Positions 1,659 to 49,225 of a stretch of 64,000 nucleotides of DNA are shown here, piece by piece (position 1 is the stretch's first letter; the number at the start of each line of letters is the position of its first letter). The position numbers and the translations under genes were made by a program. The notes under the pieces are model-generated. The model was not told the DNA's origin, made no database searches, and saw only the letters and a program-made list of their open reading frames with translations. This DNA is from Patescibacteria group bacterium (lineage in GTDB: Bacteria > Patescibacteriota > Patescibacteriia > UBA9934): positions 102,663 to 166,662 of the forward strand of contig JBBTSM010000003.1 in NCBI GenBank assembly GCA_038064675.1, given 5' to 3'.

Positions 1659-4478
1659 CTAGAAATCATCATCGCCATCGTCTTCAAACGATCCACGACA
1701 GAACACCTCTGGCTCAACAGCAGCAGTATCATTCAATCCCCATTTTTGCTGTCGCCCATCTCGTAGCGCGGCCCTCTTGAGCTTCAGAAGCTCAAGCTCT
1801 CGATCTAATTTGAGCTGAAGTTCGGACAATCTTCGCTGAAGCCCCCAACGATCTGCCCGACGTCCAACAATTCGCCCCATTGAGGGACGGTAGACTTCAT
1901 GTTTTCGCAGCCGAATGTCGCTAGGATAAAACCCCTCACGATCCGGACGAGAATCATCATCACGACTCCTTGCGTTGTAGTCGAATCGACGCCAATCAAA
2001 ACCGAGCGCTTCTAATTCCGTTATCGTTGCAGAAACTTTTCGCATGGCATCAATGGCCGCTTGCGTGTCCTGTCGGTCATGGATGCGATTGCGCAATACC
2101 ATTTCGGCATGCGGAATGTCGTTTTCGTCTAAACAACTCTGCACGCTCCGCTGATCACTTTCTGAAAACGGTGGCTCTCCAAGAACAAACGCAACAAGAT
2201 TATCAGCCTCGAACTCAGCATTCATTGCATCAGCCTCCACTTGCAACGCTCGTACATTCTTCAGTGTTTCGCTCAATGCCCCGTCCCCCATTGCCTCGCG
2301 GGCTCGAAGCGCAACAACACGCTGAGCATACTTCTCTTTTGCGCGAGCCATACTCGCCTCAGCGTCCGCCGTGTTTTGTGCATACTGGATTCGGTACGTA
2401 TCGCCATCTGAATACCGAATGGTTGCGTGCGCAAAATGTTCTACACCGTCCCGATCCACAACATACCAGATGGTTCTCGGACGCGACTCCATGAGAATAT
2501 CGAGCAGAGCGGGCGTCGGAAACTGATCATTCGGTGTGATCGTTAAAGGAATATCCATTTTTCCAACAGGATCTTGCGTTGAAAAATCTCTCCATGCCTG
2601 GGCAAGGAACCGCTCTTTAGGCTGGATGATCTCCAACAATTCCCCAAAACGATTTGCGGAAAATTCTCGCGCAGTCTGCCGAATCCCAAAACTCACATCC
2701 TCGAAACGGAACATGATCAACACCGGATTATCGCGCGTTCCAAGTAGTGGAACATCCGCCGGAGTTGCCCGCTCAAGCCAATGCGCATTCGCAAATGCTC
2801 CGCCGCCACGTTCGACGTCTACAACGCCTTTTACGATCTTTTCTCCTTTGGGATCCCATTCATATTTCACCGTAAACGGATGCTTCCCGAGTAAAATTGT
2901 TTCAGGATATTGCTTCTCTGCCTCACGGAGCGCCGCACGATCGGACTCTGCAGAAAATACATCATCAAGGGTTAACACAAAATGCGAACGCTTGTCGTCT
3001 AATTGTTTTGCAGTAGATACACCAGACGAAACAATACGATCAAACATCCACTCGCTTTCTGCGTCTGCGCCGGTATATGTATGCAACGGACCTGGATTAA
3101 CTCCGGCAATTTTTGCTAACAACGGCAATCGATTTTCAACAAGCTTCTTGTATATCCAGTGAACATCATTCCAATAATGTGGTTCAAAAATATCTTCGCG
3201 ATAGCCCACGCTTGAACGCGGACGTTCTCGAATCTTATATACTATCGCATTCGCGATTGTTCGTGCTGCCGCTTGCTCAACCACTGCCGCCCGATTGCCC
3301 TGCACAGGTTCTTCGGCGGGCATCAATCCGATACCATTCTTATTAATCAGCCAACGCTGAACATCGACGACAGTTTTCCCGTCGAAAGATCGGACACGTG
3401 GTTTCCCTCGTTCTTCCAAAAGATATCCCGTCGGCAGTGCTTCGAGAAGCTCTGGCTCAATAATGCCATGATAACCGTACCCAACGCGCTCGCCTCGGCC
3501 GTCCACACGAACAGTAGCAAAAACATTCGACACAATACCGCCATCAAACCCAACCGAACTGCGATCCGGAATGGAGGCGTAAAAATGTTGAGCATCGTAC
3601 GTGCCGGCCACTACCCAAGATGTTTGAGAACGAAAATCACGCGCGTCTTGCGCGTTACCCAACGGAGGAGCCGCATTCACCATGCGATCTATTTCTGCAC
3701 GAATCGCCTCTAAACGTTCTCGAGCCTGAGACTCAGCGTACCGCGCTGGAAGTTGCTTCAGGGGAATACAGTTTCCCTCATCTGACCGAACAAAGATGTC
3801 GTCCGCCTCAAATCCTGCACGAATAACCTTATGCAGCTGTTCGGCGCTTAGTGCCTGAATCTTTTCAATAAACGTTCCAACGTTAAACGAGGCCCGCGTT
3901 TTCGCCTCCTGTTCGTCACGAATCATTTTTGCAACATGAACCAATCCATCTCCATCTAAACCATACTGCTCGGCCCACGCGCGAAATGCGGATCGATCCT
4001 TTGGCGATTCAGCGGCAAAAACGTTTGGAACATTTTGCCCCGGCTTTGTAGCCTTTTTTAACGCGGCGAACAACCGAAACCAATCTGATGGGCGAGCGTA
4101 TCCCGTTCCCGATTCTTGCATCTCACGATCAAGCAGAGCCTGACGGTCGTGCAATCTCTTCCAAGCACGACCGCGCGCCTGAGCATCAGTGCCGCCCCGC
4201 ATCTTCATTCGTTCAGCATCAATCATTCCGCGATCCGGAATCTTGTATACCTTTGCCATGTTTGTAAATCCTTCAACCGCCCGAACCAAATTCAACATCG
4301 CTTCTGCCTCAACAGTAATTCCCATCTCTTCCGCCTTCTGCAGCATCAATGCTCTTCGTTCCTGAGGTCCGAGCTGTTCGCCGGGAACCCGCGAGCGCTC
4401 AATCTGCCGAGGTACAGGAGCACTAGGCGCTTGCGGCCCACGATCCGCCAAGATTTCTTCCCATCTCATTTTTGCCAT
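1659..4478 (-). CDS. large hypothetical cytoplasmic protein (939 aa), no family recognised
   Basis: Single long ORF with mixed composition, no signal peptide and an acidic C-terminus (EDDGDDDF). Confidence 0.5.
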   Translation of the reverse strand: MAKMRWEEILADRGPQAPSAPVPRQIERSRVPGEQLGPQERRALMLQKAEEMGITVEAEAMLNLVRAVEGFTNMAKVYKIPDRGMIDAERMKMRGGTDAQARGRAWKRLHDRQALLDREMQESGTGYARPSDWFRLFAALKKATKPGQNVPNVFAAESPKDRSAFRAWAEQYGLDGDGLVHVAKMIRDEQEAKTRASFNVGTFIEKIQALSAEQLHKVIRAGFEADDIFVRSDEGNCIPLKQLPARYAESQARERLEAIRAEIDRMVNAAPPLGNAQDARDFRSQTSWVVAGTYDAQHFYASIPDRSSVGFDGGIVSNVFATVRVDGRGERVGYGYHGIIEPELLEALPTGYLLEERGKPRVRSFDGKTVVDVQRWLINKNGIGLMPAEEPVQGNRAAVVEQAAARTIANAIVYKIRERPRSSVGYREDIFEPHYWNDVHWIYKKLVENRLPLLAKIAGVNPGPLHTYTGADAESEWMFDRIVSSGVSTAKQLDDKRSHFVLTLDDVFSAESDRAALREAEKQYPETILLGKHPFTVKYEWDPKGEKIVKGVVDVERGGGAFANAHWLERATPADVPLLGTRDNPVLIMFRFEDVSFGIRQTAREFSANRFGELLEIIQPKERFLAQAWRDFSTQDPVGKMDIPLTITPNDQFPTPALLDILMESRPRTIWYVVDRDGVEHFAHATIRYSDGDTYRIQYAQNTADAEASMARAKEKYAQRVVALRAREAMGDGALSETLKNVRALQVEADAMNAEFEADNLVAFVLGEPPFSESDQRSVQSCLDENDIPHAEMVLRNRIHDRQDTQAAIDAMRKVSATITELEALGFDWRRFDYNARSRDDDSRPDREGFYPSDIRLRKHEVYRPSMGRIVGRRADRWGLQRRLSELQLKLDRELELLKLKRAALRDGRQQKWGLNDTAAVEPEVFCRGSFEDDGDDDF

Positions 4479-4516: not shown

Positions 4517-4792
4517 TCACAGTTCTTCCGACGAATTACATTCGTACAATATCAGAATTTCTGAAGAATCTTCTTGGCTCTTCGCACCACGGTGGCAGGA
4601 ACCATAATAGAAAATTTCGACGGTGCCCGTGCGGCGAACGGATTCCAGTGAAAGGTGATCTCCAGCAATTTCTGATGGGATGCCCGCCACCATCAGTTTT
4701 GCGCACGCAATATCTGCCCGCATCTCGTCGTCCATCGTCGCGGCAACGACCAAGATTTTTCCGCGGAGATTCATACAGAACGATTCTAACAT
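4517..4792 (-). CDS. possible small hypothetical protein
   Basis: Internal Met of ORF 4517..4822. The segment KILVVAATMDDEMRADIACAKLMVAGIP looks protein-like, whereas the overlapping plus-strand ORFs look like low-complexity junk. Confidence 0.2.
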   Translation of the reverse strand: MLESFCMNLRGKILVVAATMDDEMRADIACAKLMVAGIPSEIAGDHLSLESVRRTGTVEIFYYGSCHRGAKSQEDSSEILILYECNSSEEL

Positions 4793-4835
4793 GGAGCACG
4801 CTCTTAAAACAGGAATATACAAATTTTGCCAGCGG

Positions 4836-4864
4836 TTTACATCGGAAACAAGATTCTGTAGAAT
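4836..4864 (+). promoter_or_regulatory. sigma70-like promoter (TTTACA-17-TAGAAT) about 80 nt upstream of tRNA-Trp
   Basis: Hexamers and spacer read directly from the sequence. Confidence 0.4.
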
Positions 4865-4943
4865 GAACGTGCTTTATATGGTTTCGACTGAATAGAGTAA
4901 CCGGATAGAACCTTCTCCTCAAAACAGAAGGTTCTATGTATGG

Positions 4944-5017
4944 AGGGATATCGTATAATGGTAGTACAACGGTCTCCAAAACCGTTAGCGTGGGTCCGAT
5001 TCCCCCTATCCCTGCCA
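4944..5017 (+). tRNA. tRNA-Trp (anticodon CCA)
   Basis: Manual cloverleaf: acceptor AGGGATA/TATCCCT, anticodon stem ACGGT/ACCGT, loop CTCCAAA, encoded CCA. The T-loop reads TCCGATT, with C at the usual psi55 position. Confidence 0.65.
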
Positions 5018-5034
5018 AGAGCCGCTTTGGTGCT

Positions 5035-5083
5035 GTGACCGGATTCCCATAGGACCCAGGACGGGTTCCTGTGACCGGAGTCC
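5035..5083 (+). repeat. two tandem copies of a 13-bp direct repeat: GTGACCGGATTCC at 5035-5047 and GTGACCGGAGTCC at 5071-5083
   Basis: Read directly. A third copy at 5934-5946 closes the downstream gene. Confidence 0.6.
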
Positions 5084-5102
5084 TAGCCAAAGCGACTGCT
5101 GA

Positions 5103-5132
5103 AAACCCGCCACCAATTTGGTGGCGGGTTTT
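5103..5132 (+). terminator. rho-independent terminator, bidirectional (AAAACCCGCCACCAA/TTGGTGGCGGGTTTT)
   Basis: Perfect inverted repeat flanked by an A-run and a T-run. Confidence 0.55.
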
Positions 5133-5139
5133 CAATAGT

Positions 5140-5937
5140 ATGGATTACTTCGAATGGATTCTGAATTTCAACCGGCAAGAACTGGAGAGGGTACTGACCG
5201 CCGCCGTCGGGAATTATCCATTCCCGTTCTTCCATTTGGACGCTAGGCCATATGCGCTTAAGTCAATGACAGCGATGGTTCCGTTTAATCGGATACCACT
5301 TCAAAAGAACAAAGGTGATTTTGATCTCTTAATGCGGAGAGAGCGCGGGATATTTGATATAGGATATGCCGGATACGAACTAAAAGCCTTCTATCATAGC
5401 AAGAACGATGTAATAACGCCGAAACACAAAAAGCAGAAAAACATTCGTAAATACAAATATCAAATTGAAAAACTCTCACAAGGACCATGCCGATGGATTG
5501 GTTTCATTGAAATTCACTTTTTCGAGAGCGGTAACCTTAAGTCAATTGATAAAATTGAAACTATTTCAACGGAACTCGTCGAATCGTGCGTAAAATTTGG
5601 AGCAACATATGCTCAACTCTTCGTTCAGCTTCCTCCGCAGAGTGATGGCTTACTGAATTACGATGGTGTAATTTTTTATCCGGCAAAGTACTACAATTTT
5701 GGCAAAGATAGAATACGGGGAATCCGATCGGTTTTAAGTCTGTTAGTGACGAAACTTATTGCTCGCAAAATGAAAAAGCTCGGTGAGCTACCCGGTCAGT
5801 ACAATTATTACTGCATATCTTGTAAAAAGATCACTCCCTTAAATCCAGGAATAGGAATTGGCGATTATCACATCGCATGTTGCTGCCACTGCCTTAATCC
5901 TCTAATTGCTGACAGAAAGACTGCCAAATCGCAGTGA
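5140..5937 (+). CDS. PD-(D/E)xK-type nuclease-like protein with a C-terminal Cys cluster; AT-rich; flanked by direct repeats
   Basis: The ATG at 5140 is the first Met after the terminator. The track ORF actually begins at the GTG inside repeat copy 2. Motif GDFDLL...GYELK matches (P)D...ExK; C-terminus is CISCKK...ACCCHC. GC is ~42% against a ~52% backbone. Confidence 0.45.
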   Translation: MDYFEWILNFNRQELERVLTAAVGNYPFPFFHLDARPYALKSMTAMVPFNRIPLQKNKGDFDLLMRRERGIFDIGYAGYELKAFYHSKNDVITPKHKKQKNIRKYKYQIEKLSQGPCRWIGFIEIHFFESGNLKSIDKIETISTELVESCVKFGATYAQLFVQLPPQSDGLLNYDGVIFYPAKYYNFGKDRIRGIRSVLSLLVTKLIARKMKKLGELPGQYNYYCISCKKITPLNPGIGIGDYHIACCCHCLNPLIADRKTAKSQ

Positions 5938-5946
5938 CCGGAGTCC
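5934..5946 (+). repeat. third copy of direct repeat GTGACCGGAGTCC; overlaps the TGA stop of CDS 5140..5937
   Basis: Exact 13/13 match to the copy at 5071-5083. Confidence 0.6.
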
Positions 5947-6018
5947 CTCATTAAGTATCCTCGGAATCTTCCGAAACCCCCTGAATAACCGAGTTCAGGA
6001 GCGGAGTGCCCTACCACG

Positions 6019-6049
6019 AAAAAATACAGCTGATGTCAGCTGTATTTTT
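6019..6049 (+). terminator. rho-independent terminator AATACAGCTGA-TG-TCAGCTGTATTTTT
   Basis: 11-bp stem plus T-run. Confidence 0.55.
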
Positions 6050-6098
6050 CGTTGAGGCCACAAGGGAATAGAACTTTTGTGTTAAAATTCAACACAAT

Positions 6099-6557
6099 AT
6101 GATTGGAGAACGTGTCGAACAAATTGCGTCTCAAGAGATACAAGTTAGGATTGGCAACAAGGAAAGCAAGTTCCGTGTAGTTGATAGAAGTGATCAAGCG
6201 GAGATCGCAGTTCAAGTAGATGACGACACGAATCAGGATCAAATTGCAGATACGGTGAAGGCGGCACTTGAACAGCGATATTGGTTTGTAAATCCTCAAT
6301 GGGAACAAGAGACGTTGAAAGAACGATTTAAGATCGAACTTGGCCAATCTGCGGTTGAAATTTTTGCTTTTGGTGAAGGCCTGCAGGAGAGGGTACGCAC
6401 AGGAATCATTCGAACTCTCGAACGTTTGTATAGCAAGTTGGGCGATAAATCATTATGGCGTTTAGAGTCCATTCAGATACTTCCTCAACAGACAATAAAT
6501 CCGAAAAGCGGCGAAGCCGTTCCGAGGGATGGAATTTCCTGCTCAACGACGTCTTGA
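6099..6557 (+). CDS. hypothetical protein; probable N-terminal part of a frameshift-split metallopeptidase gene
   Basis: ORF track. Runs into a stop 29 nt after the next ORF has opened in the +1 frame. Confidence 0.4.
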   Translation: MIGERVEQIASQEIQVRIGNKESKFRVVDRSDQAEIAVQVDDDTNQDQIADTVKAALEQRYWFVNPQWEQETLKERFKIELGQSAVEIFAFGEGLQERVRTGIIRTLERLYSKLGDKSLWRLESIQILPQQTINPKSGEAVPRDGISCSTTS

Positions 6558-7101
6558 ACTTTATCCGGCGGGCACGGCAAATTCGGCTTATCGGAAAGGT
6601 GAGCTTCCGTGTACTGAACTTGAAGGAACGCTGGCACACGAAATAACTCACGTAGTGCTTGAAACTGCATTAGCCAGAGCGTGGGATTCTGAAGATCTCG
6701 GCTGGGAAATACACGACGAAGTTTTGATCGAACTGCCCGGGGGAGATCGCACGATGCACTTCAACAAGCGTCCACAGGAGTGCCCGACGAGTTACGGTGG
6801 TCTGCAACCCGATGATGATCGCGCCGATAGTGTTGTCGCATTCCTTTTTGCACCGGACAGATTAAACGAAAACCGTAAACGAATTCTTGATCGTGTTTTT
6901 ACGGGAGACGAGGAAATTCTCGCTAACGTGACACGGCTAGATACAAGATTGCCGGAAGTCCCCAGTAATATCGCGGTACACGTCACTCAAAAACGTAAAA
7001 GTCTTTTTGGAATAAGCTCTATCAAACCAGGAAAAGAAAAGCGAGTCGTTACGCTATCCGATTTCCGCAAGGAGCGCAATATTCCTGAGCCAAGGTTCTA
7101 A
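6529..7101 (+). CDS. HExxH zinc-metallopeptidase-like protein (C-terminal part)
   Basis: Motif TLAHEITHVV. Its frame is open from 6499. Deleting one A in the A4 tract at ~6504-6507 fuses it with 6099..6557 into a ~334-aa protein. Confidence 0.4.
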   Translation: MEFPAQRRLELYPAGTANSAYRKGELPCTELEGTLAHEITHVVLETALARAWDSEDLGWEIHDEVLIELPGGDRTMHFNKRPQECPTSYGGLQPDDDRADSVVAFLFAPDRLNENRKRILDRVFTGDEEILANVTRLDTRLPEVPSNIAVHVTQKRKSLFGISSIKPGKEKRVVTLSDFRKERNIPEPRF

Positions 7102-7125
7102 CGTCGTGTATTAGCCCCTGCTACG

Positions 7126-7156
7126 AAAAACACAGCTGACATCAGCTGTGTTTTTT
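7126..7156 (+). terminator. rho-independent terminator AACACAGCTGA-CA-TCAGCTGTGTTTTTT
   Basis: Nearly the same hairpin as at 6019-6049. Confidence 0.55.
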
Positions 7157-7210
7157 GTTCGTGCACAGGATCTGCTAGAACGTATCGTTCAAATATCATA
7201 AAATGTTTAC

Positions 7211-7570
7211 GTGGTAAACATGTATTCAGTAATCTCTACAAGCAATATGCTGGGAACATATGAAAAAGCGCTCGAAGTCGCCGCAGCCGATAAGGGGCTC
7301 CAGGCAGCGATGGCAATTAAGCGATGGATTAAAGAGGCCCCAATCCCTAGTACTCAAATTGGAGATGGCGGGTATATTGCAAGTCAAGATATTCAAGCGG
7401 CCCTTGAAGGAGACGGACTAGAAGTGCGAACTGAAGTGAATCTTGTTCGAGAGGGATTCCCCCGTATCCAAGCGGGAGTTGGTTCAGTGGGATTTGATGA
7501 GAACCTCACGATTGAATCGGTGGGCGAAAATCGCTACAAGATTACGATGAGAAAATCCGTTGCGCGCTAG
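7211..7570 (+). CDS. hypothetical protein (119 aa)
   Basis: ORF track. Last gene of the AT-rich islet and has its own terminator. Confidence 0.35.
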   Translation: MVNMYSVISTSNMLGTYEKALEVAAADKGLQAAMAIKRWIKEAPIPSTQIGDGGYIASQDIQAALEGDGLEVRTEVNLVREGFPRIQAGVGSVGFDENLTIESVGENRYKITMRKSVAR

Positions 7571-7588
7571 CCCCTGCCAGAAACATTT

Positions 7589-7618
7589 AAAAACCCACCA
7601 GCGATGGTGGTGTTTTTT
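7589..7618 (+). terminator. rho-independent terminator CCCACCA-GCGA-TGGTGGTG plus T6
   Basis: Hairpin followed by a T-run. Confidence 0.5.
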
Positions 7619-7750
7619 GAATGGCAATGGTCGGCACCCCAAGCGTCGGGAATGCTGACCGTCGTTCATCACGGACTGTACTGAATATCCAAACATATTT
7701 TGACTGTATACTTGATACAAAGTCGAACACGTGAGCGCATAAAAGCACCT

Positions 7751-9400
7751 ATGTCTCTTCGCCGAATCATTATCATCACCGGGCTCTGTCTTGGCATCGC
7801 AATAATCGTACCGCGTGCCTTTGCATTTCCATCAAACACCGTTGCAAATCCTGGTGCCGAGACAGGAGATTTTACCAGCTGGTCCAATGTCGACATCAAT
7901 CCGTGGACGGTGGAAACCGGTGGTGCTTATGCCGGAACAAAATCATTTGTTGGAGGGTCGGGGAGCACAATCATCTCGCAAGAAATCGACCTTGTGAGCG
8001 CTGGCTACACCACAGCACAGCTCGACACCATTAGTGGCGTAGAACTCTCCGCCTGGGTAAAAGGCTTTACCGATGACAATCTTACCGGCGACCAATACGG
8101 ACTATTCATCGCCTATCAAGGCGAAGGCTTTGGCACCATGGCATTTACGTACGTTCCGCTCACCAGCGTTCCAACAGACTGGACGCACGTTGCAATCGGC
8201 CTTGGGAACTACGGACCGGGGCTCCGCTACATTCGCGTTGAACTCTGGTCGGTGGACGGCGATGGCGACGGTGCAGATCATGGAGCAATGTTCGATGATG
8301 TTGCACTGAGCATTGCCGGAGACACCGATACACCAACCGTATCGGCTCTTTCTCCCACAGACGGTGCAACGTCGGTAAATCTCCTTTCGAATCTCACCCT
8401 CACCTTCAACGAAACAGTCTACGCTGGCAGTGGCAATATCGTCATCCATCGTCTAAGCGATGGCGCCGTGGCTGCAACAATCGACGCAACGTCAGGCGCA
8501 GTGACCGGCCCAGGAACAAACACCATTGTTATCAATCCCACAACGTCGCTCCTTCAGGGAACCGCGTATTACATCACCGTCGACAATGGAGCATTCGTCG
8601 ATACGTGGACGAATCCATACGTCGGAATCTCCACGTCCACCGGCTGGAACATCCAAACCCCATTCCCCCAGGATTCGTCCGATCCGTCATCAACTCCTGA
8701 CTTCACCATTCATGATGCCGCCGCGACGATCGATGCATCTGGTGTAGCGACAGTGATATGGTCCGCGTCGTCGGAGACGCCATTCATTCGCGTGTATGCC
8801 GCGAAAGACGGACAAGATTGGGAACGCATTTCCGATCCGCTTCTCCCAACATCGTCGTTTTCATGGCAGATCCCGGAAGTATATCGGGGAAAGAATGTCT
8901 CATTTTTGGTTGAAGCAACCGACCTCGCTTCACGTCTTTCAAGCGCAGAAACACCCACTGTTCTTTGGACAGTGAATGCATCGGCCAGCTCCCCTACAGC
9001 ATCAGCAACCACGCCGAGCGAAGGAAGCTTCGTTCGTACCGCGGCGCAAGATACTGTGTACTACATCAATGCGAATTATCAACGCCAACCCATTCCGAAT
9101 GCCCAAACATTCTTTACGTGGGAAACATCATTTGATGTTGTACAAATCGTTAACGCAACAGCCTTGTCGGCAATTCCTATGGGGCCACCGCTTCCTCCAA
9201 AACCAGGAACCATGCTTATAAAAATCACCTCTGTTCCAAAAGTATACGTTGTTGATGGCACCGCCGAACATCCAACGTTGCATTGGATTCGAACGGAACA
9301 AAAAGCCATAGAGCTCTACGGTGCAGAATGGACACAGAATGTTCTGGATGTTCCCCCAACATCGTGGTCGTCGTACGATGTTGGATCCGATATTGAGTAA
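7751..9400 (+). CDS. secreted bacterial Ig-like domain protein ending in the C-terminal module shared with the two giant proteins
   Basis: Internal Met (MSLRRIIIITGLCLGIAIIVPRAFA looks like a signal peptide). Ig-like segment SPTDGATSVNL...AYYITVDNGAFVD. The C-terminal ~110 aa are homologous to the C-terminal regions of 13740..19064 and 28246..37662. Confidence 0.5.
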   Translation: MSLRRIIIITGLCLGIAIIVPRAFAFPSNTVANPGAETGDFTSWSNVDINPWTVETGGAYAGTKSFVGGSGSTIISQEIDLVSAGYTTAQLDTISGVELSAWVKGFTDDNLTGDQYGLFIAYQGEGFGTMAFTYVPLTSVPTDWTHVAIGLGNYGPGLRYIRVELWSVDGDGDGADHGAMFDDVALSIAGDTDTPTVSALSPTDGATSVNLLSNLTLTFNETVYAGSGNIVIHRLSDGAVAATIDATSGAVTGPGTNTIVINPTTSLLQGTAYYITVDNGAFVDTWTNPYVGISTSTGWNIQTPFPQDSSDPSSTPDFTIHDAAATIDASGVATVIWSASSETPFIRVYAAKDGQDWERISDPLLPTSSFSWQIPEVYRGKNVSFLVEATDLASRLSSAETPTVLWTVNASASSPTASATTPSEGSFVRTAAQDTVYYINANYQRQPIPNAQTFFTWETSFDVVQIVNATALSAIPMGPPLPPKPGTMLIKITSVPKVYVVDGTAEHPTLHWIRTEQKAIELYGAEWTQNVLDVPPTSWSSYDVGSDIE

Positions 9401-9455: not shown

Positions 9456-9475
9456 GTGTTGTATATGAAATTGCC

Positions 9476-9586
9476 CTACCACCGACCTGTTTCGTTTGGA
9501 TTGTATCCATTCACAACCTCAGTGTAGTTCGTATACCCGTCGCCTTCAGCGAAGGACATAAGATCGGCTCTCACGCTGTTGGACAT
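9476..9586 (-). pseudogene. orphan 3' fragment resembling the end of gene 12393..13568
   Basis: Encodes ...MSFAEGDGYTNYTEVVNGYNPNETGRW*. About 50 nt are near-identical to the 3' end of 12393..13568. No plausible N-terminus or signal peptide upstream. Confidence 0.35.
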
Positions 9587-13739: not shown

Positions 13740-16700
13740 TTACTCGTGAAGGTCCTGGCGGGCGCGGAGTTGGGAGCGGTCAACAAAGAATGGCGCACTG
13801 ATATCGGAGCCATGAAGAAAACGTGAGTAAAGCGTCGGCGGGATGTCGATAACGTAGTCTGCCCAGGAAGCACCAAAGATATCGCGCACAAGTACTTCAT
13901 TTGTCATCCATCGCAACGCAGTTCCCGTTCCAGATGTTTCAAGCCAATACACGCGATGATCGGATTGGACTTTGACCAGCACCGTTCCAGGATTCGGCAA
14001 CATTGGTGCGCCAACCACCATTTGTGGAAGCGTTGCATCGGTGACCATTTTAATCTCAGAACGGCTGATGATATATGTATACAGCGTCTGATTATCGATA
14101 AACGGATGTCGTCGTCCACCGGCCCCAACGTAATAGACTGTTGGATAGTTCGGCGACTGGATAAGATCTCCTACCGAAACTTCAGTAACCGATTCGGACA
14201 AGCCATTGAACGGCGATCGTCCTTGACCCTCGTAGACGACGGTTGTTGAAGGAGTTTCAGTTCCGTCACCCGCTTCCACGGCTCCATCACCAGATAGAAT
14301 TCCAGAGATGGAAAAAGTGTCATCCGACATATCTTGTGCACCAATGGTCAGCAAATCTCCACCTTCAATGAGCACGCGAGCGTTCGTCGTTGAAACATTC
14401 GGCACCGTCCACGTATAGCTGCCCGTGTTTTGAATATTTGTGGCAATCGCGGTATACGACACACCGTCGTCGAGAGAATACGCAAGCGTAACGAATGGAA
14501 TGGCAGTATCATTTGTGGACGACCAGCTGATGAATGCATGTTGTGCAGCAAGAAGACTGTCGCCGCCATTTGGCGTGATGAGTGAAAGAACAGGAACAAC
14601 GGATGGCGCGCTTTCTTCATCATTCGAGGAATCTGATGGCACTGTGGTAAACGTTGCCGGATGCGTCACTCCGGCAAGCGTGCCTCCGAACGGCACACCG
14701 GCAGTATCGTTTCCTCCAGTAACCGTGAACGTATACGACGTAGTAGGCGCTAAAAGCGATGGATGTGTTAGCGTGAGCACTGTTTCTCCCGCAGACCATG
14801 TTGCAGCGCAGCCATTAACCTCTGGAGCCAGGGTATACGTCACTGTTGAGACATTCATCGACTCGCTAAACGTAGCGGTAACATTGATGCTTCGCAACAC
14901 CGCCACCGATCCGTCTGCTGGAGTTATTGCAACAATACTTGGTGGTGCGGTATCGGTGGGAGTGACGAATCCCGACGACGCAACGTTGCCGAGCGTGTCA
15001 CTCACGCTTCCGATAATCGTGACGAGCGGTGTAAGACCGGTGTCATAGAAAGATCCCTCAGTTAACGACAGCGTCACTACGCCGGCAGATGCCTCGACAG
15101 CATCAGTAACAGCGTAAAGCGCTACAAAGAAGTCGGTGTCCGCAACAGTCGCAGCGTCGAGATCTTTTGAAAACGTCAAGACAATGCGATCAATCTTCCC
15201 ATTCGCATCAAAATCTTGTGTTGCGCCAGAAAGCAGAACTGGCGTTGCGGCGTCGCTCGGTGTAACCGATCCCGAAGCTCGAACATTCCCCACGCCATCC
15301 GCAACGTCTCCCACCAAAGACACGAGCGGGGTTGCACCAGTATCAACGCTTGATCCTTCAGTAAATACAATCGTCACTGCACCGGCCGAGGTTTCTGATG
15401 CGCTAGTGACAACGTATCCTGCAACAGTAATATCAGATCCTGAAACAGTTGATCCGTCGAGATCCTCCGAGAATAGCGCAACGACGCGGTCGATATAGCC
15501 ATTCGCGTCGATATCCTGCGCAACAGCAGACGTAAGGATTGGCAATGCAGAATCTGTTGGTGTCAGCGCCCCAGAAGTTGTGACATTGCCGGATGCATTA
15601 CTGACGCTTCCAACAATAGTGACGAGCGGCGTTGCGCCGGTATCAACCGATGGCCCCTCCGAGAGAACAATGGTCACTACGCCGGCAGCCGTTTCTGACG
15701 CACTCGATATTGTGTATCCAGAAACCGCAAAGTCCGATCCTGCAATAGTAGAACCATCAAGGTCTTGAGAAAATGTTACAACAACGGAATCAAGATATCC
15801 GTTTGTATTTGTATCGGCTGTGGTGGCCGACGCCATACTTGCAACAGACTGTGTCGTGGTAGAAAGCACATTGCTCCGATCCGAAACCGATGCGAAATTC
15901 GCGTCGTTGTCGTATGCCTCCACCGCGAAATAATATACCGTGTTCGGCGTAAGGCCGGTCACTATTCCAGTCGTCACATCACCAAACGTCGCGGTCTGTG
16001 TGAGTGCATTGCTCGCGGTTCCATACTTCACATGATATCCAGCGATAGTCGGTTCGAAAGCGGTAATGCTCGACCAATTCACCGTTGCCTGTGTTGCGGT
16101 CACCGCCGAGATCGTCAGCGCTGTCGGTTGCATGAATGCCAACGCCCACAACCGAGCGATACGTTCATAGCCGGCTGCATTTGGATGGACACCGTTATAC
16201 TCAGCCGGTTTATAATTTTGGAAGGTGAAAAAGAAATCAGCACCTCCTCCAAGTCCGAGCTCTGAGCGCATGGCGTCAATCGCGGCCGGATAGGTTGCCA
16301 AAACATCTACAATGTCCGCACGACTATCGTAGAACGGGTAAGGGACGTAAATATCGTCGTAGGAGGCGCCGTACGTGCCAATAAGGGTATTAAACAACGA
16401 CTCCATGTCGGCACGATATGTGGCTGCGGAGTGTAAGACTTGAGAATCTCCGTTGCCGAGCGCTACGATCCATTTTGTAGGAGCAAGTGCCAATTCTCTC
16501 GTTGTCCAATTGGAAACCATCACTGCCGACTGATAGTTCGACGCTCGTATACCAAGATGTCCTTCGTTCATCAGAAACACGGGGTAGCCATAATACGCAG
16601 ACAATTGATCGTTCAAATCTGTGAGAAACGATTCTTTAAACAGAGCATCAGACGGATCATTTTGTGGAAAATTTCTATGGTCAAGAGAAAGAGAACCCGC

Positions 16701-19064
16701 ATCGGCCTCCAACCAGTTAGTGACAGGGCCAGCGGGAGCCGTGCCGCCCGTACCATCAGACGTTGAGTCTCCAATGACGGAGATGATATCGCCGATTCCT
16801 ATGTGGTCGCGGTGATCATGCTGAAGAGCGTCAACGGATAGCGAACTGCCATCGCCAAGAATCTCGTACGCATCGAGGGTGTACTCCGCTTTCGCTAACC
16901 CAGAAAAAGCCGCGGTGTAAGCCGGACCAGCAAGGTCGTTGATTGTTTGTTCTCCTGCGAGCCCTTGATTTAAAATGAAGCGTATCCCCCCTCCCGTTGG
17001 AATGTCGTCGACGGTAGCGACGGCATTCAACGTGGAAGATGTTTGGATGTACGGAATGTAAAAGGTGCCATTTTCGTCGTCGATTTGTAAGGTGGCGGTG
17101 TCTGGCTCGGCAACAACACCGGCGGCTGGCGAGGTAATTAATAAGGTGGGGGCTGGGGCCGGTGGCGGGAGGGTTCCGGCAAAGTGAACGTCGTCAAAAT
17201 AGGCGTCGGCAACGGTCGTGTTTCTTCCAAGTGCAAAGGTGCCGTTAGGAAAACGATCAACAGTGTCAGTAAACGTAACCGTTGGAGTCAAGGGTTTCTC
17301 TGCTCCTTGTTTCCAGGCGTAGACGTTGATAACGGGCAAGCTGGAACCATTGTTTATGACGGAAGCCTCAACGTTGGTCCAGCCATTTTGCACAAACGGA
17401 ACAACGGTCGTCGCCGAACCGGTCGCAAGCGAGGTGAAGGTTGCCCCAACCTGAGAACTAATGGTCCAAACGCTGCCGTTATGCCAAACAAGGTATCCGT
17501 CATTATTTGCCTGACGGCGCAACCACGCATACCCGGAGGTGTTGTTGACCAAGTTTGATCTGAACCGATAGGAAATAACTTGATTCAGCGTGGTCGAACT
17601 TCCGTTCACCGCCATGTTCGTGATATAACTCGTGGTCGCTGATCCGGAAAGAAGGCGATCCGGTGAAACATCGGCAATCGTCCAAGTTCCGCCCTCACTC
17701 GTCCAACCATTTTGACCAACGACCGTTCCCGTATTTAACGCGTCAAAAGAATCCGCAAAAAGTTCTGTATACGGTGTTTCGCTTACAAACTGTGGTGTTC
17801 CGTAGACGTTTGAAGAATCGTAAGGAAACAAAGTGTAGTAATAGAGCGTACCATTCGTTAAGCCAGAGTGTGTGGTGCTACTATTTCCTCCGGACGATCC
17901 AGCAATGTCAGCAACCAGCGTTCCATCTGTTGGCGTCGCGGGGTACGCAGACGTACTCACGCGAACCATTGTTCCAGCATATGCGGCAAACATGGGATTT
18001 TTCCAACTGAGAGTATTAGAACCATCGCCAGGAATCACTCGCACAAAGGAGTCACCGCTCATTCCAGCATAGAGAATATTGTCGTACTCCGCGGCGACGG
18101 TGGAGGATTTTCCCACCGAAAAGACCCCTTGAGCAAAACGATTGACCGTGTCCGTAGCGGTTGCCGTTGGCGTGGAAGGCTTGGCCGTTCCCCGCACCCA
18201 CACATAGGCGGTGAGCACCGGCAAACCTGCGGAATTATTGACCACGGAAAATTCATAAGTATACCAAGTGTTGGCAAGTTGAGTAAAGGCTCCGGTTGCC
18301 ATACTGGTAAAGGAGGCTCCGGTAGTGGGTTTATAGCTAATGCGCAAAACTCCGCCTCCTTGGGTCAACACGTATCCACCGGCGTCCGCCGTGGCGGATT
18401 GGGCGCGCAAAAAGAGTTGCCCAGGAGCGTTAATGGTTGTTCCCTTCCAGTCTGCGCGGACCATTTGATTACTGTAGGCAGCTACATTGCCACCGTTTAA
18501 CACGCGATGCTGATCAAAAGTTAGGTTTTCCGTGCCGCTTTTGAGCGTTTGTTCGCCAGCGGTATCGACAATACTCCAGGTGCCCGCCACCGTAGCCCAA
18601 CCATTCTGACCGCTGACCGCCGCCACGTTGAGCGACTCAAAATCATCACTGAAGACCGTTTGCATAACTAATTGCTGAGTATTTACTGCAGAACTGTATT
18701 CTGGCGTGCCATCATGAGAAAAGAGGGAGAAATAGTACACGGTTCCATTCGTTAAACCGGTGATGGTGTACGAACTCGTCCCGCTTGGCGAACCAGCAAC
18801 ATCGGATGCGAGTGTCCCATCACTTACTGACGTTGGAAATGCGGTCGAGCTATAGCGCACCATAACTCCTGTAAATCCAACATCAGCAGGGTTCGTCCAT
18901 GAAAGAGTCACCTGTCCGTTGGCCGGAACGGGAACAACGTTCGCTACAGTTGCCGGTGCCGCACCAAATGCAAATGGAGAATACAAAAATGTTCCCGCAA
19001 GGAATCCAAATCCCAAACTGAGCCCAAGAACAACAATAAGAATATGGTGAGCCCGAATGGTCAT
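13740..19064 (-). CDS. giant (~1775 aa) multi-domain surface protein: FN3, two LamG-like modules, an embedded SGNH/GDSL hydrolase domain, three tandem ~95-aa repeats, an Ig-like domain and the shared C-terminal module
   Basis: Start at internal Met MTIRAHHILIVVLGLSLGF (signal anchor). GDSL block I VIGDSTSDGTGG and block V NGVHPNAAGYERIA. FN3 segments (PANGQVTLSWTNP...). Repeat unit NGYLDSVVVTFSQDLDGST..., three copies. Confidence 0.6.
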   Translation of the reverse strand: MTIRAHHILIVVLGLSLGFGFLAGTFLYSPFAFGAAPATVANVVPVPANGQVTLSWTNPADVGFTGVMVRYSSTAFPTSVSDGTLASDVAGSPSGTSSYTITGLTNGTVYYFSLFSHDGTPEYSSAVNTQQLVMQTVFSDDFESLNVAAVSGQNGWATVAGTWSIVDTAGEQTLKSGTENLTFDQHRVLNGGNVAAYSNQMVRADWKGTTINAPGQLFLRAQSATADAGGYVLTQGGGVLRISYKPTTGASFTSMATGAFTQLANTWYTYEFSVVNNSAGLPVLTAYVWVRGTAKPSTPTATATDTVNRFAQGVFSVGKSSTVAAEYDNILYAGMSGDSFVRVIPGDGSNTLSWKNPMFAAYAGTMVRVSTSAYPATPTDGTLVADIAGSSGGNSSTTHSGLTNGTLYYYTLFPYDSSNVYGTPQFVSETPYTELFADSFDALNTGTVVGQNGWTSEGGTWTIADVSPDRLLSGSATTSYITNMAVNGSSTTLNQVISYRFRSNLVNNTSGYAWLRRQANNDGYLVWHNGSVWTISSQVGATFTSLATGSATTVVPFVQNGWTNVEASVINNGSSLPVINVYAWKQGAEKPLTPTVTFTDTVDRFPNGTFALGRNTTVADAYFDDVHFAGTLPPPAPAPTLLITSPAAGVVAEPDTATLQIDDENGTFYIPYIQTSSTLNAVATVDDIPTGGGIRFILNQGLAGEQTINDLAGPAYTAAFSGLAKAEYTLDAYEILGDGSSLSVDALQHDHRDHIGIGDIISVIGDSTSDGTGGTAPAGPVTNWLEADAGSLSLDHRNFPQNDPSDALFKESFLTDLNDQLSAYYGYPVFLMNEGHLGIRASNYQSAVMVSNWTTRELALAPTKWIVALGNGDSQVLHSAATYRADMESLFNTLIGTYGASYDDIYVPYPFYDSRADIVDVLATYPAAIDAMRSELGLGGGADFFFTFQNYKPAEYNGVHPNAAGYERIARLWALAFMQPTALTISAVTATQATVNWSSITAFEPTIAGYHVKYGTASNALTQTATFGDVTTGIVTGLTPNTVYYFAVEAYDNDANFASVSDRSNVLSTTTQSVASMASATTADTNTNGYLDSVVVTFSQDLDGSTIAGSDFAVSGYTISSASETAAGVVTIVLSEGPSVDTGATPLVTIVGSVSNASGNVTTSGALTPTDSALPILTSAVAQDIDANGYIDRVVALFSEDLDGSTVSGSDITVAGYVVTSASETSAGAVTIVFTEGSSVDTGATPLVSLVGDVADGVGNVRASGSVTPSDAATPVLLSGATQDFDANGKIDRIVLTFSKDLDAATVADTDFFVALYAVTDAVEASAGVVTLSLTEGSFYDTGLTPLVTIIGSVSDTLGNVASSGFVTPTDTAPPSIVAITPADGSVAVLRSINVTATFSESMNVSTVTYTLAPEVNGCAATWSAGETVLTLTHPSLLAPTTSYTFTVTGGNDTAGVPFGGTLAGVTHPATFTTVPSDSSNDEESAPSVVPVLSLITPNGGDSLLAAQHAFISWSSTNDTAIPFVTLAYSLDDGVSYTAIATNIQNTGSYTWTVPNVSTTNARVLIEGGDLLTIGAQDMSDDTFSISGILSGDGAVEAGDGTETPSTTVVYEGQGRSPFNGLSESVTEVSVGDLIQSPNYPTVYYVGAGGRRHPFIDNQTLYTYIISRSEIKMVTDATLPQMVVGAPMLPNPGTVLVKVQSDHRVYWLETSGTGTALRWMTNEVLVRDIFGASWADYVIDIPPTLYSRFLHGSDISAPFFVDRSQLRARQDLHE
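14900..15780 (-). repeat. three tandem ~270-bp intragenic repeats, each encoding a ~95-aa unit, inside gene 13740..19064
   Basis: The repeat shows in the protein, and antisense ORFs 15136..15498 and 15580..15768 repeat each other. Confidence 0.4.
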
Positions 19065-19200
19065 AACGTAGTGCCAGTATACCACGATATGTCGTGATAG
19101 AATTGCAACAGCTATGATTAGCCTCCTTCTCTGGGACATCTACGAAATCAGCTCCCCCGCCTCTCTCCAGGGCGTTATGCTTCGCGGTCGCATTACAACG

Positions 19201-20202
19201 CTAAAGCTTTTCCAGCAGCTGCATTAATCCAACTTCATGAACGTGGAGTAAGGGATATTTCTTTCGCAACGTTTCGCGTGGAGCCTTCCAGGTGAGTTTT
19301 CCTTTGGCGTACAACGAAAGCACGTCGGGATGGATATAGGATTTTTTACAGACCGCAACCGTGTTGCCGAGCGCGTCGGCAGCGCGCTGAACTGCGACCT
19401 TGATATCGCGTTGAACGTCGCGTTTTGTTTTTGCGACAGGTCGATCCCAAAGATACGACGCGGCGATAACCGTGCCGTGCCACGTTCGGAAATCTTTTGC
19501 GGTAATCTCTTCCTTGGAAATCGATTTCAAGTATTCGTTCACGTCGTCAGACTGCACGTCGTGTGGTCTGCCGTCGTGATCAATATATTCAAAAAGCTTT
19601 TGTCCAGGAATGTCGTGGCATATTGCAACGATTTTTCGCAATCGCTCGTCCTCAATAGGAAACTCGTGCGCAATGCCATCCTTCCCATCGAATGCTAATT
19701 CCATGTGCTCCCCCGTTCCTTTCACGTGCCGATTACGGAGCGTCGTTAATCCGAACGAATGGTTGTCTTTTGCATATTCCTCGTTGCCGATGCGAATAAA
19801 TGCCGTGTCGAGCAGCCGCACGATAGCTGCCAGCACTTTTTCCTTCGGCATTCCACGCAGCCGAAGATCGCTCTCGACTTTTCTGCGAATCCGAGGAAGT
19901 GCCGCAACAAACTCGCTCATGCGATGAAACTTTCCCTCGTTCTGTTTTGCAATCCAGTCGGGATGATAGATGTACTGCTTGCGTCTTCGTGCATCGAGCG
20001 CCGTTGCCTGAATGTGTCCATTCACAAACGGACAGATCCACACGTTTGTATACGCCGGAGGAATTCCGAGCGAACGAATGCGATCCAATATTTTTCGATT
20101 ACGAATCTTTCCTCCCTTCTCGTCGCGATATGCAACGCCGAAAAATCCCTTCGCACGAGAGAAACCTGGGACCTCATCGGTGACGTATCGAAGCCGCATC
20201 AT
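19201..20202 (-). CDS. type IB DNA topoisomerase (poxvirus-like / bacterial TopIB)
   Basis: RLRYVTDEVPGFSR, GIPPAYTNVWICP, FRTWHGTV, and the active-site Tyr context VCKKSYIHP. Start taken at internal MMRL. Confidence 0.6.
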   Translation of the reverse strand: MMRLRYVTDEVPGFSRAKGFFGVAYRDEKGGKIRNRKILDRIRSLGIPPAYTNVWICPFVNGHIQATALDARRRKQYIYHPDWIAKQNEGKFHRMSEFVAALPRIRRKVESDLRLRGMPKEKVLAAIVRLLDTAFIRIGNEEYAKDNHSFGLTTLRNRHVKGTGEHMELAFDGKDGIAHEFPIEDERLRKIVAICHDIPGQKLFEYIDHDGRPHDVQSDDVNEYLKSISKEEITAKDFRTWHGTVIAASYLWDRPVAKTKRDVQRDIKVAVQRAADALGNTVAVCKKSYIHPDVLSLYAKGKLTWKAPRETLRKKYPLLHVHEVGLMQLLEKL

Positions 20203-20284
20203 TGTAGTATAGCAAGCCGCGCTCCACACACTGATGTGTTTTACAATTGAAAAGACCACACCCGCGAGAGCGCGGCCCTTCATG

Positions 20285-37662: not shown

Positions 37663-37763
37663 ATTTTTCACATGGTTGGATGGCCAGATAATACCGGTTT
37701 CGTGGCTGCTCGAATACCACGTTATACACATAAAATTACAGGATCGAGATACACTACTCGCAT

Positions 37764-38375
37764 ATGGCATCATGGAGCCCCCAAGAACGCTCAATCCTTC
37801 GAGCGCTCTCCACCCCGGCGAAAATTCAAGACTTCTTGAACGGCCTTCGATTCCGGATTATCGGCAAGAATGAGACATGCCATTCCCCTCGTCTGGTGAT
37901 GCGGTATCGGGAAGCACAATGCGTTGAAGGTGCGATGTTTGCGGCGGCCGCGCTCCGATTCCACGGCTATCGACCGCTCATCGTCGATCTCGTTTCTACC
38001 GCACAGGACCAAGACCACGTCATCGCGGTCTTCCAGATTAATGGGCACTGGGGAGCGATATCAAAAACAAATCACGGCGTGCTCCGATATCGCGAGCCTA
38101 TTTACCGATCGATTCGCGAGCTCGTGATGAGTTACTTTCACGAATACTTCCTCCAATCGAATCGGAAAAAAACTCTCCGAAGTTTTTCGAAGCCCGTTGA
38201 TCTCACCAGATTTGATCACCAAGGATGGGAAACAAGTGAAGAACCGATTTGGTATATTCCAGAATACCTCTTATCGATTCCCCACTCACCAATTCTGAAC
38301 CGATCCCAAATTGCACGATTACGTCTAGCCGACCCCATCGAGGCGCAGATGACGGAAATCGTGGAGTGGGAATGA
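37764..38375 (+). CDS. transglutaminase-like cysteine peptidase superfamily protein, transcribed divergently from the giant adhesin
   Basis: EAQCVEGAMFAAAALRFHGYRPLIV...DHVIAVF fits the Cys-His-Asp transglutaminase-like core. Confidence 0.4.
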   Translation: MASWSPQERSILRALSTPAKIQDFLNGLRFRIIGKNETCHSPRLVMRYREAQCVEGAMFAAAALRFHGYRPLIVDLVSTAQDQDHVIAVFQINGHWGAISKTNHGVLRYREPIYRSIRELVMSYFHEYFLQSNRKKTLRSFSKPVDLTRFDHQGWETSEEPIWYIPEYLLSIPHSPILNRSQIARLRLADPIEAQMTEIVEWE

Positions 38376-48688: not shown

Positions 48689-48764
48689 GCCGAAATAGCT
48701 CAGCTGGTAGAGCAACGGTTTTGTAAACCGTAGGTCACCGGTTCGAATCCGGTTTTCGGCTCCA
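48689..48764 (+). tRNA. tRNA-Thr (anticodon TGT)
   Basis: Perfect cloverleaf: GCCGAAA...TTTCGGC T CCA; anticodon loop TTTGTAA. Confidence 0.8.
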
Positions 48765-48765
48765 G

Positions 48766-48851
48766 GGGTTGGTACTCAAGCGGTCAACGAGGAGAGACTG
48801 TAAATCTCTTGGCTTGCGCCTTCGAAGGTTCGAATCCTTCCCAACCCACCA
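48766..48851 (+). tRNA. tRNA-Tyr (anticodon GTA), long variable arm
   Basis: GACTGTAAATC anticodon arm; TTCGAAGGTTCGAATCCTTC T-arm; encoded CCA. Confidence 0.8.
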
Positions 48852-48853
48852 TC

Positions 48854-48978
48854 AGAAAAGCTCATAAAATTGCCCAGGGCGTTGTCGTCGCCTTGCGCCC
48901 CGTCCTCACCGTACACTGTGGTACGCCTCGGACGGTGCTCGGCTCCTCCTAGCCCTGAACAATTTTATGAGCTTTTCT
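48854..48978. repeat. a perfect 19-bp inverted repeat (AGAAAAGCTCATAAAATTG / CAATTTTATGAGCTTTTCT) flanking an ~88-nt GC-rich core, directly after tRNA-Tyr
   Basis: Read directly. Could be a MITE-like insertion or a structured RNA. Confidence 0.5.
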
Positions 48979-49044
48979 CATTCACTTTGTGCCGATTCGT
49001 AAGAATTTGAAATGATAAGACCGGAAAAAGTGCTAAGTTTGCGT

Positions 49045-49105
49045 AGTGCTAGGAGCGGCGAGGATCGCAGCGAAACGTACTTCACGGTACGTTGAGCGAG
49101 AACCG
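49045..49105 (-). repeat. copy 3 (core only) of the MITE-like element, upstream of tRNA-Thr(GGT)
   Basis: GTACTTCACGGTACGTTGAGCG matches the reverse complement of the core of copies 1 and 2. Confidence 0.45.
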
Positions 49106-49149
49106 GAGCAAGCAACAACGCAATACGCAAACTTGGGCACATTTTCCCC

Positions 49150-49225
49150 GCCGCAGTAGCTCAGATGGTAGAGCGCATCCATGGTAAGGATGAGGTCTCG
49201 GGTTCGATCCCCGACTGTGGCTCCA
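49150..49225 (+). tRNA. tRNA-Thr (anticodon GGT)
   Basis: GCCGCAG...CTGTGGC T CCA; anticodon loop ATGGTAA. Confidence 0.8.

Follow-up and report, generated by a model that had tools for sequence, protein, structure and literature searches.

Three single-gene cassettes stacked 3′ of a patescibacterial tRNA-Trp gene and their probable origin by serial insertion

Directly 3′ of the tRNA-Trp gene of a Patescibacteria group bacterium (GenBank assembly GCA_038064675.1) lies an AT-rich islet of four open reading frames (ORFs), here called g1 to g4. It is part of a stretch of 64,000 nucleotides (nt) from contig JBBTSM010000003.1 (positions 102,663 to 166,662), the whole of which we refer to as the window and whose coordinates are used throughout. 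We find that it consists of three consecutive single-gene cassettes behind the tRNA, rather than four genes. Each cassette ends by repeating the final 8 nt of the tRNA, and such arrays probably grow by serial insertion at that site.

Layout and composition of the locus

The features of the locus are collected in Table 1. A first-pass annotation, made from the sequence alone, had described a four-gene islet with a drop in GC content behind tRNA-Trp. The tRNA, the four ORFs and the drop are all borne out, while the count of units is revised to three cassettes. Across 5018-7579 the GC content amounts to 45.4%, whereas the window averages 51.8%; this places the islet at the 1.5th percentile among windows of the same length. 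It climbs with the distance from the tRNA, from 41.1% in g1 (0.4th percentile) through 46.8% in g2 and g3 to 50.0% in g4. The tRNA was the sole match in an Rfam scan of 4700-7900.

Four hairpins, each followed by a T-run, punctuate the locus with RNA minimum free energies (MFEs) of -18 to -32.5 kcal/mol and z-scores of -4.3 to -8.9. A simple terminator consensus scan picked up only the last of them, at 7584-7623. From the stable hairpin and the ensuing T-run, all four are predicted to be intrinsic terminators. An intrinsic terminator behind every gene had been named in the first pass and the four structures agree with that, except that the first one lies between the tRNA and g1. Gene callers start g1 at the GTG at 5071, from where translation would run through the hairpin at 5102-5132.

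Table 1. Features of the tRNA-Trp array in the window
Feature	Position	Strand	Remarks
tRNA-Trp (CCA)	4944-5017	+	ARAGORN and Rfam (tRNA, 59.2 bits); intact
Core inside tRNA-Trp	5010-5017	+	CCCTGCCA, the last 8 nt; attB-like end
Cassette A	5018-6016	+	nearest the tRNA and most AT-rich (44.0% GC); right arm 5018-5139, then g1
Direct repeat GTGACCGGAKTCC	5032-5048, 5068-5084, 5931-5947	+	third copy overlaps the g1 stop codon
Hairpin and T-run	5102-5132	+	between tRNA and g1, in the Cassette A right arm; MFE -32.5 kcal/mol, z -8.9
g1	5140-5937	+	265 amino acids (aa); ORFan; Cys-rich C-terminus
Cassette A left arm	5991-6008	+	GAGTTCAGGAGCGGAGTG, degenerate
Cassette A core	6009-6016	+	CCCTACCA, 1 mismatch
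Cassette B	6017-7123	+	split peptidase gene
Hairpin and T-run	6017-6051	+	Cassette B right arm
Right-arm element	6067-6074	+	AATAGAAC
Extended -10-like box	6080-6088	+	TGTTAAAAT
g2	6099-6557	+	N-terminal 143 aa of the zincin-like protein and an out-of-frame tail
Frameshift site	6510-6519	+	GGCGAAGCCG in the window, GGCGAGCCG in L029; one extra A in the window
g3	6529-7101	+	C-terminal portion of the same protein, with the motifs HEITH, ELPGG, CPTSY and QPDDDRADS
Cassette B left arm	7092-7114	+	AAGGTTCTAACGTCGTGTATTAG
Cassette B core	7116-7123	+	CCCTGCTA, 1 mismatch
Cassette C	7124-7579	+	carries g4
Hairpin and T-run	7123-7158	+	Cassette C right arm
Right-arm element	7174-7181	+	GCTAGAAC
-10-like box	7199-7204	+	TAAAAT
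g4	7247-7570	+	107 aa; start could be 7211 or 7220
Cassette C left arm	7556-7570	+	degenerate
Cassette C core	7572-7579	+	CCCTGCCA, exact
Hairpin and T-run	7584-7623	+	after the last core; end of the recognisable array, before the Big_5 gene
Big_5 gene	7700/7751-9400		beyond the array end

Anatomy of the cassettes

Every unit ends in the same order, with a left arm (RGTTCTAAC-nTC-N4-CAC-TAG), the core CCCTGCCA and a variable hairpin with a T-run. Left arm and core together form a signal of about 30 nt, and the stop codon of the ORF often falls within the left arm. The core equals the 3′ end of tRNA-Trp exactly, that is, the end of the acceptor 3′ strand plus G73 and CCA. In the window, every core sits directly before a hairpin and just after a stop codon. 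An intact tRNA at the proximal side and direct repeats of its 3′ end at the distal junctions are present here and likewise at another locus, L019.

A hidden Markov model (HMM) of the left arm, built from other genomes, detects the left arm and core after g3 with an nhmmer E value of 5e-9, and weaker copies follow g1 and g4. The segments 3′ of g1 and of g3 are near-duplicates of each other and are similar to the region behind tRNA-Trp in relatives. In the clade of the window, a further sequence, GTTRGGCCACARGRGG-(G/A)T(T/A)AGAAC, often comes next. The cargo units are thus separately bounded, as had been suggested in the first pass, since each closes with a core copy and a hairpin.

In a circularised Cassette A, the copies of GTGACCGGAKTCC would flank the core on both sides like arm-type binding sites. 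A right arm related to that of Cassette A follows the g4 homologue in L023 (about 2330-2380). In Cassette B the -10-like box lies 11 nt 5′ of the g2 start, and in Cassette C the TAAAAT box lies just 5′ of the possible g4 starts. These box positions and the lack of Shine-Dalgarno sequences suggest that the cassettes may be expressed with a short leader or leaderless.

Occupancy of the site in relatives

The tRNA-Trp 3′ end is occupied differently among related loci. In L022, g4 with its right arm comes immediately after tRNA-Trp. In L019, one unrelated minus-strand gene and a second left arm and core stand between the tRNA and g4, which again has the same right arm. In the window the order is g1, peptidase gene, g4, and L029 has the peptidase cassette directly behind the tRNA and a GIY-YIG cassette after it. 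The same genes are not present at the locus in all relatives, which favours an islet, and the differing occupancy of L022, L019 and L029 by units that end with the last 8 nt of the tRNA substantiates the earlier view of this end as an insertion site.

The breakpoints are precise. Cassette B is 86% identical in nucleotides, core to core, with L029 4678-5786, where it lies directly 3′ of tRNA-Trp. Between this core and the peptidase start codon ATG, a segment that takes in the hairpin, AATAGAAC and TGTTAAAAT, the window and L029 are about 95% identical, and to the left of the core lie the tRNA in L029 and the degenerate g1 left arm in the window. The peptidase gene retains its left arm up to the core at its far end, past which the sequence follows the next cassette. 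In 4-5 loci, among them L023, L024, L029 and L049, the GIY-YIG cassettes carry the same right arm, CGTCGGTCGCGACCGACGTGGCCTGCCAC..., immediately after the core in any upstream context. Because of the breakpoint between the window and L029 and because these right arms travel with the downstream gene, the mobile unit, as delimited by these comparisons, is right arm, ORF, left arm and core, with the junctions formed at the core.

The window sequence belongs to a CPR metagenome-assembled genome from groundwater well H41 at Hainich (GCA_964357295.1), and contigs identical to that of the window occur in several ENA and Logan assemblies. Those of independent assemblies of the same population end or start at 6020, 6023 and 7575, all of which are cassette boundaries, and this hints at branching of the assembly graph by junction heterogeneity or repeats. 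The contig ends of L003, L009, L010, L011 and L077 fall at window positions 4980 (in the tRNA), 6020-6023, 7575 and 7721-7738.

The signal across Patescibacteria

An exact-pattern scan with TTYTARCNNCNNNNNNTAGCCCCTGCCA over one genome each of 185,579 species and over metagenome contigs gave 17 genome loci and 32 metagenome loci. With two exceptions, in Acidobacteriota and Omnitrophota, they show the additional conserved bases and a hairpin behind the core. About 47 loci are credible and almost all are from Patescibacteria, with Uhrbacteria, Parcubacteria and 'Patescibacteria group' as their taxon labels. The signal had no match among 2.9 million viral contigs. Within a genome it is limited to one locus.

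The tRNA-Trp cassette signal is also carried by contigs labelled as Gammaproteobacteria (L027, L029, L034, L039 and L040) and as Flavobacteriaceae (L028). These are probably mis-binned contigs of the candidate phyla radiation (CPR). For L029, the mis-binning is indicated by its copy of the window cassette at 86% nucleotide identity.

The left-arm HMM finds 91 copies in these loci by nhmmer, on one strand within each locus and with a median spacing of 1.1 kb. Outside the fixed positions of the pattern, conservation amounts to 0.91 at G10, 0.95 at T19, 0.86 at A25 and 0.80 at C26. In 20 loci a tRNA-Trp gene of the same orientation lies 5′ of the array, at 0.5-4.5 kb from the first copy detected, and in none of the loci is it downstream or on the opposite strand. 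The acceptor stems of these tRNAs vary (CGCCCCT, TATCCCT, TGCCCCT, TTCCCCT, CACCCCT and others), all of the tRNAs end with CCCTGCCA, and the cassettes keep TAG-CCCCTGCCA while the stems differ. Therefore, the block of shared identity is the 8-nt core.

The first 60 nt behind each core fold much more stably than control 60-mers from the same loci, with mean MFEs of -16.8 versus -9.45 kcal/mol (p=3e-9), and a T-run follows the core in 73% of the copies. The longest ORF is directed away from the tRNA in 36 of 38 cassettes. The array cargo includes Fic, NUDIX, GNAT, methyltransferase, EamA, histidine phosphatase, GIY-YIG and P-loop kinase genes, as well as PP2C, M23, TrmB, transporters and many ORFans. 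Two Fic cassettes match the PADLOC SoFic at 2.7e-119.

Of all cassette genes, the one that recurs most often, in 7 loci, encodes a GIY-YIG-only protein of ~90 aa (L023 126-419, L024 5868-6134, L029 5920-6192, L037 1436-1726, L049 399-686 and 10730-10966; also L036 and L048). It could be common cargo or be related to cassette mobility. Many right arms open with a perfect palindrome of 24 nt, CCACGTCGGTCGCGACCGACGTGG, and then have a second partial core, CCTGCCAC (L029 5786-5830; also L023, L024, L033, L036, L049, L014 and L019). This duplication of the core around ~20 nt might represent an 'empty cassette' or the scar of a recombination event.

Cargo proteins of the window

At E<=1, searches of Pfam, PADLOC, PHROGs and NCBIfam gave no match for any of g1, g2, g3 and g4. 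For g1, a word-indexed search gave no relatives, an exhaustive HMMER search of 1.84 billion representatives returned g1 itself and two artefacts from repetitive proteins, and nothing matched among the PDB sequences. Its structure model, with a predicted local distance difference test (pLDDT) score of 31, is unusable. The GDFDLL...YELK pattern and the Cys-rich tail reported for g1 are present, but the nuclease (PD-(D/E)xK) idea comes from this one short pattern and finds no support beyond it. The g4 family is small and restricted to Patescibacteria, with 4 relatives at 67-77% identity.

The g2 and g3 ORFs are halves of one gene, as the first-pass annotation had proposed. Among 5.8 billion clusters, g3 has five non-self relatives, each of which is 325-330 aa long and spans g2 and g3, and a sixth homologue in L029 is one intact protein of 334 aa. 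Programmed frameshifting was rejected as the cause, for 6 of 6 homologues are in frame, and the extra A falls within GAAG, where neither a slippery heptamer nor a stop-codon context is present. The split recurs in at least five independent assemblies, so that, with no slippery site and with the homologues in frame, it is a fixed mutation and not a sequencing error. On these alignments, the mutation is an inactivating (or gene-splitting) one, and the window copy is probably a pseudogene.

The HEITH of the window reads HE[VIST]TH in all six homologues, within a conserved extended motif HExTHxxLE, and the ELPGG, CPTSY and QPDDDRADS motifs are conserved among the g3 homologues. An AlphaFold model of an intact homologue has a pLDDT of 70 and a predicted template modelling (pTM) score of 0.68. 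Its top Foldseek matches in the PDB are all zincin catalytic domains, namely those of M1 aminopeptidases, clostridial collagenases and lethal factor, and they are weak (E ~7e-3, TM ~0.2). A profile of the peptidase matched nothing among the PDB sequences. A zincin-like metallopeptidase is a reasonable but unproven identity for the modelled product. The earlier Zn-peptidase call is reasonable in view of the motif and the weak fold match, although the copy in the window is frameshifted.

Search for a recombinase

The window was checked with precomputed Pfam annotation for about 1-48 kb and with our own Pfam scan for 48-64 kb. Phage_integrase is absent from the annotation and no intI adjoins the array. 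A regular-expression search for tyrosine and serine recombinase catalytic boxes in all locus ORFs found only an integrase in L019 and one spurious box, the latter in a window ORF (50775-51386) that has no Pfam domain. The L019 gene (129-1334) is the sole tyrosine integrase (Phage_integrase) in any locus, lies 8 kb upstream of its tRNA-Trp and is without homologues both at the remaining loci and in the window. No recombinase is found among the array cargo genes.

The gene divergent to the tRNA, which encodes a 939-aa protein, was weighed as a possible unrecognised integrase gene and rejected, because it is not conserved beside tRNA-Trp in L019, L022 and L029. As no recombinase was found, the enzyme would act in trans or the arrays would be inactive now. 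Candidate enzymes are a host Xer-type recombinase, the type IB topoisomerase of the window and the recurrent small GIY-YIG protein. The gene for the bacterial type IB topoisomerase lies at 19201-20283 on the minus strand (Pfam Top1B_N_bact and Topoisom_I). The chemistry of these topoisomerases is shared with tyrosine recombinases.

Surroundings of the array

The neighbours of tRNA-Trp encode a 91-aa and the 939-aa protein, both without Pfam domains, and comparison of the 939-aa protein with PADLOC, PHROGs and NCBIfam likewise yielded nothing usable. A perfect 12-bp inverted repeat, ATAGAACCTTCT / AGAAGGTTCTAT, is located at 4905-4937, 6 nt 5′ of tRNA-Trp, and holds the GGTTCTA and TAGAAC words seen in the cassette arms. 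The GGTTCTA hairpin was rejected as a universal part of the site, since no locus other than the window, L029 and L025 has it. A tRNA-Thr gene lies only 0.3-1.1 kb 5′ of tRNA-Trp in L030, L037, L048, L059 and L074, and the tRNA-Thr/Tyr/Thr cluster of the window (48689-49225) is 44 kb from tRNA-Trp.

Beyond the array, a further CCCTACCA at 9474-9481 comes just after the terminator of the Big_5 gene. It has the order of hairpin then core and no left arm, so it may be a chance occurrence or an eroded boundary. In L014 the Big_5 homologue is located inside the array; in L029 it is found on the opposite flank of the tRNA. An inversion joining the array end to the Big_5 gene was rejected, as no sequence similarity was found. 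The large ORFs of the window are all on the minus strand, at 1659-4478 (939 aa), 13740-19139 (1799 aa) and 28246-37794 (about 3140-3182 aa). The 1799-aa protein has fn3/Big_5 domains and the about 3140-aa one, like the 939-aa one, has no Pfam domain.

Discussion

The arrays probably arise as single-gene cassettes that lack an integrase are inserted one after another, by site-specific recombination, at the tRNA-Trp core. A cassette would comprise a right arm with a hairpin/T-run and a -10-like box, one ORF pointing away from the tRNA, a left arm and a core. When free and presumably circular, it would recombine via its own core with the core at the tRNA end. The insertion would place it beside the tRNA, regenerate the tRNA and shift the older cassettes outward. 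In the window, g1 would be the newest, the peptidase gene the next and g4 the oldest, and the GC gradient, with g1 the most atypical beside the tRNA, agrees with this order.

Transcription of the tRNA and of each gene would end at the hairpins, so that the units would be expressed independently, and the recombinase would be supplied in trans. The circular intermediates, the enzyme and any present-day activity are what we infer from the arrangement of the units. A wider proposal is a phylum-wide and currently active gene capture at the tRNA-Trp 3′ end that would have the function of an integron but a different mechanism. Its unlinked, unrecognised recombinase would both insert and excise cassettes equipped with promoters and terminators. 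This wider proposal is possible and we put it forward tentatively.

Several observations weigh against serial insertion. The conservation of the core is partly ascertainment, the core being part of the search pattern, and ~30 loci are without tRNA-Trp in the retrieved stretch, many of these stretches being short. The 8-nt core by itself is not over-represented across the window, so the case for the boundaries rests on the core position, the extended left arm and the cross-genome homology. Some right-arm modules that end at TAGAAC are common to unrelated cassettes and may reflect a second class of breakpoints. All 10 contigs with exact g4 and all 10 with exact g3 share one arrangement with no presence/absence polymorphism, no excised or circular form of a cassette was seen, and no recombinase was identified in the cassettes or the 64-kb window.

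A true integron array, or a cluster of attC sites lacking integron-integrases (CALIN), would have attC sites recombined by an IntI-type integrase between G and TT of the R′ box, with the tRNA end serving as attI. Its attC boxes are R″=RYYYAAC and R′=GTTRRRY, and the clade element is bounded by an imperfect inverted repeat that resembles them, GTTCTAAC ... GTTAGAAC. The cassettes are co-oriented and mostly single-gene, the single-stranded DNA of the element folds into a long imperfect hairpin (z -2 to -5) in which GTTCTAAC and GTTAGAAC pair in 4 copies, and several unrelated cassettes have a common right-arm module ending TAGAAC. However, no intI or tyrosine recombinase is beside any array or in the window, and the breakpoint between the window and L029 is at the core and not after the hairpin, contrary to a crossover in R′. 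Moreover, the distal GTTAGAAC is absent from most arrays beyond the clade whereas left arm and core are universal, the inner fold is weakly paired and the cassettes have promoter-like boxes of their own, which leaves an integron unlikely. Scars of successive prophages, integrative and conjugative elements (ICEs) or genomic islands, which came to tRNA-Trp with their own integrases and decayed to single genes, would leave low GC and partial copies of the tRNA 3′ end downstream of the gene, the classic footprint of such integrations, and a Phage_integrase gene is on the L019 contig. Yet the left arm of about 21 nt is not tRNA sequence and is still conserved in distant Patescibacteria beside unrelated genes. 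The spacing is uniformly gene-sized, phage or conjugation genes and integrase remnants are missing, viral contigs are devoid of the signal and the L019 integrase is without a homologue at the other loci, so we think this origin quite improbable.

The hairpin/T-run after nearly every core and the stop codon that the left arm often gives could alternatively mark a transcript-end module of ordinary genes, composed of a stop codon, a tRNA-like tag and a terminator. The differences among loci would then come from rearrangement or from homologous exchange after DNA uptake, in keeping with the failure to find a recombinase or polymorphism within the population. But new junctions between arbitrary cassettes meet exactly at the 8-nt core, too short a stretch to support homologous recombination. 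In addition, the arrays are anchored to one tRNA whose end the core matches despite the varying acceptor stems, and all signal copies of a genome cluster in one locus; a transcript-end module is very hard to reconcile with these features. The least probable is an anti-phage defence islet of a nuclease and a metallopeptidase, the theme of defence or abortive infection raised in the first-pass annotation. Arrays elsewhere do hold accessory genes, including the two SoFic-type Fic cassettes, but none of g1 to g4 matches the defence, domain or phage families searched, g1 is without relatives and the peptidase is frameshifted. The peptidase and g4 are not one system because they occur apart in relatives. 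The 'metallopeptidase' of the window is probably a decaying copy, and there is no evidence for a defence system there.

Serial insertion of cassettes shares features with several known systems. Integron arrays and CALINs likewise consist of mostly single co-oriented ORFs, each with a structured signal that overlaps or abuts the stop codon, seem to take up new units at one fixed end and carry diverse, accessory and often ORFan cargo. In sedentary chromosomal integrons, the signal is also family-like within a lineage. However, integrons are anchored by attI next to intI, whereas the anchor here is a tRNA 3′ end with no linked integrase. Their crossover at G and TT of R′ contrasts with an 8-nt core shared with the tRNA, and their fully paired attC stem with a short linear motif and core in units having their own promoter-like boxes and terminators.

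Elements targeting tRNA genes also insert at the 3′ end, regenerate the tRNA and leave a copy of its 3′ end at the far junction. By tandem accretion, repeated events of this kind yield tandem units separated by tRNA-end copies, and cis-mobilizable elements (CIMEs) are att-flanked units without recombination genes of their own. These islands are 5-100 kb, unlike the one-gene units here of about 0.5-2 kb with no integrase. Here, furthermore, one non-tRNA arm is common to dozens of unrelated cassettes across the phylum, which argues for a common dedicated system and not independent elements.

The staphylococcal cassette chromosome (SCC) and pseudo-SCC elements at rlmH (orfX) resemble the arrays in that site-specific insertions follow one another at the 3′ end of one conserved gene, in short direct target repeats between units and in that some units need a recombinase in trans. 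They differ in target, unit size and recombinase class (the Ccr serine recombinases, encoded within the island), and have neither a hairpin/terminator module nor a phylum-wide arm motif. The Xer-dependent pdif modules and integrative mobile elements exploiting Xer (IMEX) are alike as small cargo modules with short conserved sites and a host recombinase encoded outside the module. The pdif sites, though, are 28-bp pairs of XerC/XerD half-sites in alternating orientation and unlinked to tRNA, and a dif-like half-site pair is not evident in the cassette signal.

To our knowledge, CPR bacteria (Patescibacteria) have very small genomes in which few mobile elements have been recognised, and little is understood of the ways in which they acquire and exchange accessory genes. 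The literature searched, of which the coverage was incomplete, held no description of such patescibacterial arrays, so the architecture is apparently undescribed. A conserved signal at one tRNA gene would define a dedicated, searchable locus of the flexible genome across the phylum. The left arm and core would offer a simple sequence handle for harvesting cargo from metagenomes, including ORFans and some defence genes such as the SoFic-type Fic.

The arrays would also account for assembly breaks at this locus and for mis-binning of the contigs that contain them. They would point to a recombination activity that uses the tRNA 3′ end. If the proposed gene capture is true, it would give these tiny genomes a dedicated locus for accessory genes.

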